This document shows positions 23,291-24,054 of a stretch of DNA of 64,000 nucleotides, piece by piece. The notes under the pieces were generated by a model. The model was not told the DNA's origin. It made no database searches and saw only the letters and a program-made list of their open reading frames with translations. How positions within the stretch are numbered: the first letter of the stretch is position 1; each line of letters opens with the position of its first letter. This DNA is from Trinickia sp. (lineage in GTDB: Bacteria > Pseudomonadota > Gammaproteobacteria > Burkholderiales > Burkholderiaceae): positions 5,065 to 69,064 of the forward strand of contig NZ_DASXWY010000180.1 in NCBI RefSeq assembly GCF_036503415.1. Direction: 5' to 3'. Both the position numbers and the translations under genes were made by a program.

Positions 23291-23578
23291 CTAAGAAGCC
23301 TTTCGGCGTCGCCCCTCGCGTAACGGTCGGACGATGAATCGGTAGATCGTCCAGACAGTGATGCATGCGGCCGCCAACGAGACAAAAAAATAGAAGAGCA
23401 GCAACAGAGTTTCCCCTTCATCGGCTCCGCGCACATTGAAGAGGTCCGCGAGGAAGAAGTAGACCTTTTGGCCGCCGGCGCTCTTGCGAACATCGTCGAC
23501 CCACTGCCAGCTATAGATCAGCTTCAAGTACAGGTATGTCAACGCCGCTACCATCGCCGTGCGCAGCACATATTTCAT
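23291..23578 (-). CDS. 95-aa two-TM membrane protein, candidate immunity protein
   Basis: ATGA overlap with the DUF2778 gene; two hydrophobic helices around a hydrophilic loop; basic C-terminal tail. Confidence 0.65.
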   Translation of the reverse strand: MKYVLRTAMVAALTYLYLKLIYSWQWVDDVRKSAGGQKVYFFLADLFNVRGADEGETLLLLFYFFVSLAAACITVWTIYRFIVRPLREGRRRKAS

Positions 23579-24054
23579 TTCACCTCCACGACGCCGTAGT
23601 AACGCGCTTTTGTGCCCGGAATATAGCTGGGCGGAAGTGAGAGGAGGTAGGTACGGAGCTGATTAAAACGCGATTGGTCCGTGAGGGTAATACAGCCTTC
23701 ACTGAGACGCTGACGGCCCGCGGGATGGAGGCGGAAGTTATTTCTGCGTACGCCACTCACGATGACCCAATCGGCCATCGGCTGTGTCACCGGGTGTAGC
23801 GAGAACCACTCATTGCGGTGTGAGTTGCTGAACTCGTCCTTGATGGGATCCCACAGCCAGCCAAGGCGCCCGCCGCTCTCCCGCGCGATGATGTAGTAGC
23901 GCCCCTTCGGAATCGGCCCCGCCTTTGCCAATGCCGTATCGGCGGCCCTATTCTCGTGTCCGACGTCGCCGGAGAAAGCTGGAAAGGTGAGCCCATCGCA
24001 AGTCAGCTTGCTGATAGGCTGGCCGTTCAGAACGAATGTGCAGTTCGCTGCCAT
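23575..24054 (-). CDS. DUF2778 / Tlde1-like L,D-transpeptidase-fold antibacterial effector
   Basis: FPAFSG, GPIPKGRYYI, WFSLH and FRLHPAGRQRLSEGCIT (His...SxGC) motifs; no signal peptide. Confidence 0.85.
   Translation of the reverse strand: MAANCTFVLNGQPISKLTCDGLTFPAFSGDVGHENRAADTALAKAGPIPKGRYYIIARESGGRLGWLWDPIKDEFSNSHRNEWFSLHPVTQPMADWVIVSGVRRNNFRLHPAGRQRLSEGCITLTDQSRFNQLRTYLLSLPPSYIPGTKARYYGVVEVK

Follow-up and report, generated by a model that had tools for sequence, protein, structure and literature searches.

In a 64,000-nucleotide (nt) stretch of Trinickia sp. DNA (NCBI RefSeq assembly GCF_036503415.1, contig NZ_DASXWY010000180.1, positions 5,065 to 69,064 of the forward strand; hereafter the window, in whose coordinates positions are given unless another record is named), two overlapping genes occupy a small islet beside a tRNA-Ser gene. 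The first encodes a 159-amino-acid (aa) protein with a Tlde1 domain, formerly DUF2778 (hereafter the toxin), and the second a 95-aa membrane protein (hereafter the partner). Here we describe this pair, its relatives and its surroundings, and we argue that it probably represents a type VI secretion system (T6SS) effector together with its cognate membrane immunity protein. The locus comprises the following features, in which att denotes an attachment site:

22671–22693, right copy of the 23-nt direct repeat GGGGCGTTCTGGCGGAGGGCGTG, distal boundary of the islet
22694–23290, remainder of a decayed element with no intact gene (Pfam scan, blastn against the metagenome contigs L013/L014, gene tables)
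23291–23578, minus strand, partner gene, 95-aa membrane protein, putative cognate immunity protein of the Tai7/Tldi1c type
23575–24054, minus strand, toxin gene (Tlde1/DUF2778), 159 aa (list of open reading frames and Pfam PF10908)
24055–24449, minus strand, non-coding leader from the att repeat and tRNA to the toxin start (sequence, repeat search)
24450–24472, left copy of the perfect 23-nt direct repeat GGGGCGTTCTGGCGGAGGGCGTG, att-like, overlapping the 3′ end of the tRNA
24459–24548, minus strand, tRNA-Ser(tga), putative integration target (ARAGORN; Rfam tRNA, 58.4 bits)

The first-pass annotation had described two open reading frames (ORFs) joined by an ATGA overlap, and both are present at the stated coordinates, on the minus strand: TCAT on the plus strand at 23575–23578 reads as ATGA on the coding strand, where the toxin stop and the partner start overlap. 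A Shine–Dalgarno (SD)-like GAGGG lies 9 nt before the toxin ATG in the leader, and an SD-like GGAGG for the partner start lies inside the 3′ end of the toxin gene. The pair also proved to be, as that annotation had proposed, the only intact genes of the island, the remaining sequence between the 23-nt repeats containing no intact gene.

Sequence and predicted structure of the toxin

The toxin matches the Pfam model PF10908 Tlde1_dom over residues 23–146 (E = 4.3e-29, 101.8 bits, against a gathering cut-off of 30.1 bits) and the PHROG family phrog_14093 (3e-56). Its catalytic residues are His110 and, within Ser118-Glu119-Gly120-Cys121, the cysteine; in an alignment of 39 homologues (A3), this His and Cys never vary, nor do 20 further positions. 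The protein has neither a signal peptide nor a lipobox, and no N-terminal hydrophobic segment (maximum Kyte–Doolittle 19-residue mean of 0.77), and its small single domain is compatible with carriage as Hcp cargo. The earlier description of a DUF2778-type gene with an intact His...SEGC motif and no signal peptide thus holds in every part. An AlphaFold2 model of the toxin (mean predicted local distance difference test (pLDDT) score of 90.6), compared with the PDB by Foldseek, retrieved LdtMt2 (probability 0.99), the Pgp2 L,D-carboxypeptidase, YcbB and LdtA as top matches, with modest template-modelling scores of 0.37–0.48. The toxin profile reaches YkuD only at E = 0.4, and on its sequence profile the toxin is a member of the DUF2778 clade, apart from the YkuD enzymes.

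The L,D-transpeptidase fold and the catalytic dyad would also suit a housekeeping L,D-transpeptidase or carboxypeptidase that remodels peptidoglycan, with the partner as its membrane regulator. However, a protein without signal peptide or lipobox, belonging to the DUF2778 clade and not to YkuD, fits this role poorly, as do its patchy, mobile distribution over islets and prophages and a GC content below that of the host (0.57–0.60 in the islet against 0.63–0.67 in its flanks), and we give this explanation hardly any credence.

A two-helix membrane protein and its family

No match to the partner was found in Pfam, NCBIfam, PHROG or PADLOC, and at E ≤ 0.1 the PADLOC models matched neither the toxin nor the partner. 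Hydropathy indicates a strong hydrophobic helix at about residues 57–80 (Kyte–Doolittle value of 2.35) and a weaker N-terminal helix at residues 4–24 (1.3), and AlphaFold predicts helices at residues 2–22, 24–31, 33–45 and 51–93 (pLDDT 90). The earlier label of a 95-aa protein with two transmembrane segments is therefore reasonable, with one segment strong and one marginal by hydropathy and both covered by AlphaFold helices (2–22 and 51–93). Between the N-terminal helix and the strong second transmembrane helix is an acidic loop of about 30 residues (net charge −2), with two short helices and the motif G-A-D/E-x-G-E, which reads G-A-D-E-G-E at residues 51–56, and the second helix is followed by a basic C-terminal tail, RPLREGRRRKAS (net charge +6). 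The positive-inside rule would place both termini in the cytoplasm and the acidic loop in the periplasm. The partner has no DUF2195 domain (Pfam, NCBIfam) and is a predicted helical membrane hairpin, and hence no homologue of the immunity protein Tldi1a.

An exhaustive profile search of 1.84 billion representative sequences found 24 clusters of partner relatives, all of 80–110 aa. Each begins with an N-terminal helix, continues with a loop whose end reads G-x-E-(Q/D)-G-(E/D) and a second helix, and closes with a basic tail. Every partner homologue that could be placed on a contig, down to about 25% identity, directly follows a 159- or 160-aa Tlde1_dom gene with a 4-nt overlap. The neighbourhoods of these pairs are otherwise unrelated, and include rpoD/dnaG in Trinickia caryophylli (L001, PNXZ01000015.1), an aldehyde dehydrogenase gene in a Paraburkholderia metagenome-assembled genome, and loci in Burkholderia guangdongensis and other organisms. 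We considered that the partner might be extremely rare, with 6 relatives in a word-index search and 24 clusters by profile, but this proved to be an under-count, since ORFs downstream of toxin homologues reveal a much larger, fast-diverging family. A locus search with the toxin profile yielded 32 viral contigs from IMG/VR; from metagenomes it yielded 244 stretches, and 80 of these were retained. In 87 of the 103 evaluable loci, the toxin gene is followed by an ORF of 70–120 aa that overlaps it by ATGA, and nearly all such ORFs have two predicted hydrophobic helices. A hidden Markov model (HMM) of the partner (A2) scores at least 15 bits in 89 of 97 downstream ORFs of 70–120 aa; the best of 970 composition-matched shuffles reached 10.6 bits and the best reversed sequence 6.0 bits. 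Judged by sequence, the partners are one coherent, unannotated family, the standard and fast-diverging companion of the ~160-aa Tlde1 clade.

These results bear on what the first-pass annotation had made of the partner. Its description as a membrane-anchored protein outside the Tldi1 family stands, given the two helices and the missing DUF2195 domain. Its status as a non-canonical or new type of immunity protein does not, since immunity proteins with transmembrane domains have already been published for Tai7 (10.1101/2020.02.18.954545); nor is it unusual within its own clade, in which an ATGA-overlapping two-helix partner is the rule.

Several individual records extend the range of the family. 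In Burkholderia pseudomallei (UVFF01000021.1; L031, positions 8575–10740), two Tlde1/partner pairs of 160 + 95 aa and 160 + 86 aa stand in tandem where a prophage ends, apparently an incipient array of effectors and immunity proteins. The first pair's partner, of 95 aa, scores only 15.8 bits on the HMM. A 136-aa partner homologue from the representative search (P0025) contains the two-helix unit twice in tandem, with the second copy truncated, which suggests duplication within immunity genes. The one Salmonella match to the partner at E ≤ 1 did not hold up as a meaningful one. Its locus, on a bacterial contig of Salmonella enterica subsp. houtenae ATCC BAA-1581 that is filed in the phage collection (L032, positions 12001–12753), carries an unannotated, frameshifted Tlde1 pseudogene, 36% identical, adjoining an IS150 transposase in the mgtC/mgtB island, near mgtCB. 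The small membrane ORF that follows this pseudogene has an acidic motif and a basic tail, and no significant similarity to the partner family.

Linkage to type VI secretion in relatives

In Paraburkholderia sabiae, the T6SS-1 cluster runs from tssK and tssL through a GNAT gene to Tlde1, which is followed by a 90-aa ORF that overlaps it and then by Hcp, so that the pair there, unlike that of the window, is embedded between tssL-GNAT and the Hcp gene. The toxin of this cluster has 159 aa and is 45% identical to that of the window, and the overlapping ORF (L027, positions 10477–10749) encodes two helices, shares a 4-nt overlap with the toxin gene and scores 27.7 bits on the partner HMM. The immunity gene of this cluster, whose DUF2778 gene is paras_007252, was reported as not found (PMC10434147); the 90-aa ORF is likely to be that gene. 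An Hcp gene lies immediately upstream or downstream of the pair in 14 further loci. On the HMM built around the window partner, the partners with an upstream Hcp gene mostly score 45–60 bits, and those with a downstream Hcp gene, as in the P. sabiae-like arrangement, about 6–26 bits. Delivery of these small effectors as Hcp cargo has been proposed (10.1101/2020.02.18.954545; PMC9638812).

Within the window, tblastn with TssB, TssC, TssE, TssF, TssJ, TssK, TssL, two Hcp, one PAAR and TsiV queries found no T6SS core, Hcp or PAAR gene, with only chance-level matches of 22–24 bits at E ≤ 1. No VgrG was seen among the large ORFs by inspection; no VgrG query was run, and this protein is therefore not formally excluded. 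The large ORFs near the 5′ end that were scanned encode HlyD/M50, DUF2339, CLC-channel and MFS proteins; a 792-aa ORF aligns with a RelA/SpoT gene in the near-identical contig L013, and ORFs of 896 and 788 aa were judged by eye. The earlier statement that the window holds no T6SS, VgrG or PAAR gene is thereby borne out for the T6SS core and PAAR, and likewise for Hcp, and for VgrG to the extent that large ORFs were inspected.

Such a location has precedent. A 2020 preprint divided the DUF2778 proteins into three families; of these, the Tae7 subfamily occurs in Burkholderia, Paraburkholderia and Pseudomonas, and its members are often accompanied by an orphan Hcp (10.1101/2020.02.18.954545). In just 42.6% of the genomes that carry a Tae7 member is that member near T6SS structural genes (10.1101/2020.02.18.954545), and genetic linkage to a T6SS is therefore not a strict requirement for membership of the subfamily. 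About four T6SS core sets are present in one Trinickia representative genome (PMC11481896), and the host of the window looks like a species of that genus, the HemW cluster mates at 90% identity or more being named Trinickia sp.

Toxin decay, partner retention and expression

Where toxin and partner were compared at one and the same set of loci, identity to the window is 77–92% for the toxin and only 55–74% for the partner. In two independent lineages (L004/L005 and L023/L024), the toxin gene is frameshifted, with its catalytic half split off, and the partner is intact; sister assemblies of the L004/L005 lineage have an intact toxin. A further candidate for a lost toxin with a retained partner, L012, was not counted, because its partner also lacks the second helix and both genes are degraded. 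Retention of the partner after loss of the toxin is expected of an immunity gene, and not of a holin or an export helper.

Fragments that match both genes and the leader (24065–24445) exactly occur in four soil or rhizosphere metatranscriptome assemblies, at a low depth at which DNA carry-over is possible. In the same four assemblies, the flanking binding-protein and uracil-DNA-glycosylase genes have zero depth. Finding the pair but not its neighbours suggests that these two genes are transcribed in situ, from a start that may lie close to or inside the tRNA gene; a sigma-70 consensus promoter was not found on the minus (coding) strand of the islet, and an Rfam scan of the islet returned the tRNA only. 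In one assembly (X35), a 381-nt contig covers the leader at 24065–24445 with a word depth of 6.8, above that of the coding parts; read-through from the tRNA-Ser gene is a possible cause, as is a long 5′ untranslated region. The dozens of homologues, the SD-like sequences and these exact matches in metatranscriptomes together indicate that the two genes are real and not chance ORFs.

The repeated loss of the toxin could also mean that the pair survives as a defensive or selfish relic on a prophage stub, in a genome without a compatible Hcp or T6SS, where the local toxin is no longer deployed. The partner would then guard against Tlde1 toxins of neighbours, or its loss would be lethal where the population still fires the toxin. 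Orphan immunity genes have been described for the Tlde1 family (10.1101/2020.02.18.954545), the surrounding element has decayed, and neither the window nor the vicinity of close relatives contains Hcp or T6SS genes, all of which this explanation would accommodate. It accounts less well for a toxin ORF that is intact in the window with all invariant residues present and is 99–100% conserved over many soil metagenome samples, for the appearance of both genes in metatranscriptomes, and for the several T6SS sets of the Trinickia representative genome. We consider it unlikely, although it is the chief alternative to our preferred interpretation.

Phage carriage and the origin of the islet

Homologous pairs are carried by temperate phages of several kinds. 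The pair is present in 88 Ralstonia solanacearum prophage records, representing a Mu-like prophage and including several labelled Race 3 (toxin 54–56% and partner 40% identical to the window), as well as in phiBtTUL1a, an isolated temperate phage of B. pseudomallei/thailandensis, in vB_PR2c, which is Mu-like, in two more Burkholderia phages and in the 32 IMG/VR contigs. In phiBtTUL1a and related B. pseudomallei prophages the pair stands beside the integrase, and in the Ralstonia prophage it adjoins the head-protease gene. In phiBtTUL1a (L025/L029, OR360541.1, positions 20322–22732), a PAAR-motif protein and a TsiV-family immunity gene lie a few kb from the pair, within the same moron region between the integrase and the lysis genes; with PAAR and TsiV genes accompanying the Tlde1 pair, this phage carries several T6SS cargo genes. 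According to the coordinates, well over half of these IMG/VR contigs have the pair within about 2.5 kb of a contig end, that is, of a predicted prophage boundary.

The islet of the window has the corresponding architecture. The 3′ end of tRNA-Ser(tga) points toward the islet, the tRNA gene lying ~400 nt upstream of the toxin gene on the same strand, and the right repeat copy lies immediately past the stop of a periplasmic-binding-protein gene. The 23-nt repeats and the tRNA 3′ end are the signature of site-specific integration into tRNA-Ser, and they delimit an islet of 1.78 kb. Beyond the pair, a Pfam scan found no intact gene and no family match between the repeats except a weak DUF4224-like N-terminal fragment of 30 aa (23188–23277, plus strand, E = 0.046); in phiBtTUL1a, a DUF4224 protein precedes the integrase. 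In blastn comparisons, the metagenome contigs L013 and L014, whose flanks are 97% identical, carry the islet at the same site with an additional 1.42 kb, consisting of a YggL-like gene and a 240-aa ORF. Because these same-site relatives carry 1.42 kb more, the islet of the window is a further-deleted version. The att-proximal cargo position seen in the phages matches that of the window pair, which comes first after the att repeat of the tRNA, and on this ground we regard the islet as the probable stub of a decayed temperate phage or a similar integrative element.

Two other features of the islet and its relatives deserve mention. A YggL_50S_bp-like gene follows the pair in L013 (11376–12412) and L014 (11159–12312) and also at an unrelated locus (L007, 1944–2285), and may have been part of the ancestral mobile element; the 240-aa ORF that adjoins the YggL-like gene has no family match. 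In the leader, a 20-nt tandem repeat with imperfect copies, TTCGCGACTAAACCGGACTA / TTCGCAACGACTCCGGACTA (24328–24367), could be a leftover of integrase arm-type sites or an operator.

Carriage on this scale, by the 88 Ralstonia records, phiBtTUL1a, vB_PR2c and the IMG/VR contigs, raises the question of whether the pair is a phage module that acts independently of any T6SS, with the partner as holin or translocator for the signal-less enzyme in auxiliary lysis, abortive infection or superinfection control, and with the window copy as a prophage leftover. The pair indeed resembles a holin–endolysin cassette of temperate phages in combining a signal-less cell-wall enzyme with a small membrane protein that has a highly basic C-terminal tail; with its two helices, the partner is superficially like a class II holin, and in vB_PR2c the holin and endolysin genes follow a short way downstream of the pair. 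Yet the order is enzyme-first, and every phage examined has a complete holin/endolysin/spanin cassette elsewhere: the Ralstonia prophage (L019) has its own holin (phrog_1528), endolysin (phrog_669) and Rz-like spanin ~9 kb from the pair, and vB_PR2c and phiBtTUL1a have a separate holin, lysozyme and Rz. A phage function of this kind also leaves unexplained the Hcp adjacency at 14 loci and the placement in a T6SS cluster in chromosomal relatives. Nor does it suit the cargo position at the integrase or contig end (phiBtTUL1a and many IMG/VR contigs) and the PAAR and TsiV genes that adjoin the pair in phiBtTUL1a; a holin would be useless once its enzyme had decayed, and no PADLOC model matches. 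We regard such a module as very unlikely, and a plain holin/endolysin reading was rejected on the lysis cassettes of the carrier phages and the Hcp/T6SS linkage of the pair. An anti-phage defence or toxin–antitoxin module was likewise rejected, on the missing PADLOC match and on the expectation, by analogy with Tlde1a, that the toxin is harmless in the cytoplasm.

A bacteriocin-like variant of the T6SS-free scheme would have the toxin freed by lysing lysogens or by partner-aided export, to kill non-lysogens while the partner protects lysogens, in a form of kin exclusion; we rate this as a long shot. It is more likely that temperate phages are the main vehicle that spreads an Hcp-cargo pair in Burkholderiaceae, arming lysogens for T6SS combat. 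Examples of such phages are the R. solanacearum Mu-like prophage, the phiE125-like phages of B. pseudomallei and B. thailandensis, and BcepMu-like phages, and the two-helix partners may in that case be a single unannotated immunity family.

Comparison with characterised systems

The closest characterised system is Tlde1a/Tldi1a of Salmonella Typhimurium (STM14_0336/STM14_0335; Sibinelli-Sousa et al. 2020), for which a structure is given in PMC9638812. Tlde1a is toxic only in the periplasm, requires its catalytic cysteine and acts as an L,D-carboxypeptidase/transpeptidase (10.1101/2020.02.18.954545; PMC9638812). The window toxin resembles it in its PF10908 domain, its His...S-x-G-C motif, its small single domain without a signal peptide and its bicistronic arrangement with a small protective protein, and it would be expected to share its periplasmic target, the stem peptides of peptidoglycan. 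The two differ in that the capping-subdomain insert of Tlde1a is reportedly lacking in the clade of the window toxin (PMC9638812), and in that Tlde1a is encoded within the T6SS cluster of Salmonella pathogenicity island 6 (SPI-6), whereas the window copy lies outside any T6SS cluster. The established and the putative immunity protein differ as well: Tlde1a is neutralised by a Sec-exported DUF2195 protein (10.1101/2020.02.18.954545), Tldi1a, which is soluble and encoded upstream, whereas the window partner is a two-helix membrane protein encoded by a downstream, overlapping gene.

The pair agrees in every respect with the published description of Tae7/Tai7, which includes the membrane immunity protein, the taxonomy, the association with orphan Hcp and the frequent location away from T6SS genes. 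Taxonomy and type of immunity protein would thus place the window pair in this subfamily, and the order of names in PMC9638812 suggests that Tae5, Tae6 and Tae7 correspond to Tlde1a, Tlde1b and Tlde1c. The preprint neither classified the immunity proteins further nor gave them a phylogeny (10.1101/2020.02.18.954545), whereas the partners described here resolve into one coherent family.

The obligate adjacency of the two genes, the Hcp linkage in relatives, the faster divergence of the partner and the decay of the toxin with the partner kept make the effector/immunity reading well supported. In our preferred interpretation, to which we assign a probability of roughly three in four, the toxin is a T6SS effector that attacks peptidoglycan and depends on Hcp, the partner is its cognate membrane immunity protein, and the two form an orphan pair delivered by phage.

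A number of points weigh against this interpretation. The solved chain of Tlde1a was not retrieved from the PDB by phmmer or by the toxin profile, the sequences being too distant for such detection, and Tlde1a was not among the top 50 Foldseek matches of the toxin model; because both kinds of search missed it, the likeness to the characterised enzyme rests on the Pfam model and on the shared fold and motif. The assignment to Tlde1c draws on taxonomy and partner type, not on a phylogeny with reference sequences. The first transmembrane segment of the window partner is weakly hydrophobic and marginal by hydropathy, and no biochemical or genetic study has been published for any member of the partner family. 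The 64-kb window lacks T6SS, Hcp and PAAR genes, with VgrG judged by ORF inspection only, and no T6SS gene lies within 8–10 kb of the pair in the closest relatives (L001–L024), so that a delivery machine elsewhere in the host genome has to be assumed. The enzymatic activity of the toxin, the way in which this organism delivers it and its direct binding to the partner are things that we infer.

Proposed mechanism of action

Under the effector/immunity interpretation, an integrative element, most likely a temperate phage, would have brought the pair in as att-proximal cargo on inserting into tRNA-Ser, and would then have decayed to the 1.78-kb stub. By analogy with Tlde1a, the 159-aa enzyme, having no export signal, would be harmless in the cytoplasm of its producer. 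A T6SS encoded elsewhere in the genome would take it up into its Hcp tube and inject it into the periplasm of Gram-negative neighbours, where the Cys121/His110 site would trim or exchange the fourth residue of peptidoglycan stem peptides; the altered stem peptides would block cross-linking and lead to swelling and lysis. The 95-aa partner is predicted to insert into the inner membrane with cytoplasmic termini, including the +6 C-terminal tail, leaving the loop of ~30 residues, which is conserved, acidic and helical, exposed on the periplasmic side, where it may bind and block toxin arriving from sister cells. Translational coupling through the ATGA overlap would keep toxin and partner co-expressed.

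Other features of the window

Further genes of the window lie at some distance from the islet. At 18776–21216, an AvrRpt2-like papain-fold cysteine protease (Peptidase_C70/C39_2) is encoded by a long ORF of 311 aa, its relatives having 196 aa; it is preceded by an ORF of 248 aa that matches no family and begins like a signal peptide. A LuxR-type regulator (Autoind_bind and GerE) adjoins this protease block, in the lowest-GC patch of the region (0.475–0.57), and the block looks separately acquired. In the window, 15 kb separate the pair from a gene for a large DUF2339 membrane protein (5777–8815); in L021/L022, where another organism has a distantly homologous pair, such a gene (914–3715) lies 4 kb away. 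This is probably a coincidence. The region at 20–5265 encodes a partial OEP outer-membrane efflux protein, a member of the HlyD family and a 703-aa protein in which Peptidase_M50 and HlyD domains are joined, and looks like an unusual tripartite exporter.

Implications

Membrane immunity proteins and a frequent location away from T6SS clusters were already known for this subfamily from the 2020 preprint, to which the window adds one more orphan pair. A profile of the partner family could annotate hundreds of proteins now listed as hypothetical, such as the product of the putative immunity gene in P. sabiae T6SS-1, which had been reported as missing. The recurrence of the pair as att-proximal cargo in temperate phages of R. 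solanacearum and of B. pseudomallei/thailandensis concerns a class of loci that surveys centred on vgrG would miss. Finally, the pair poses a tractable structural question: how a periplasmic loop of ~30 residues on a membrane hairpin would act against an enzyme of the L,D-transpeptidase fold.

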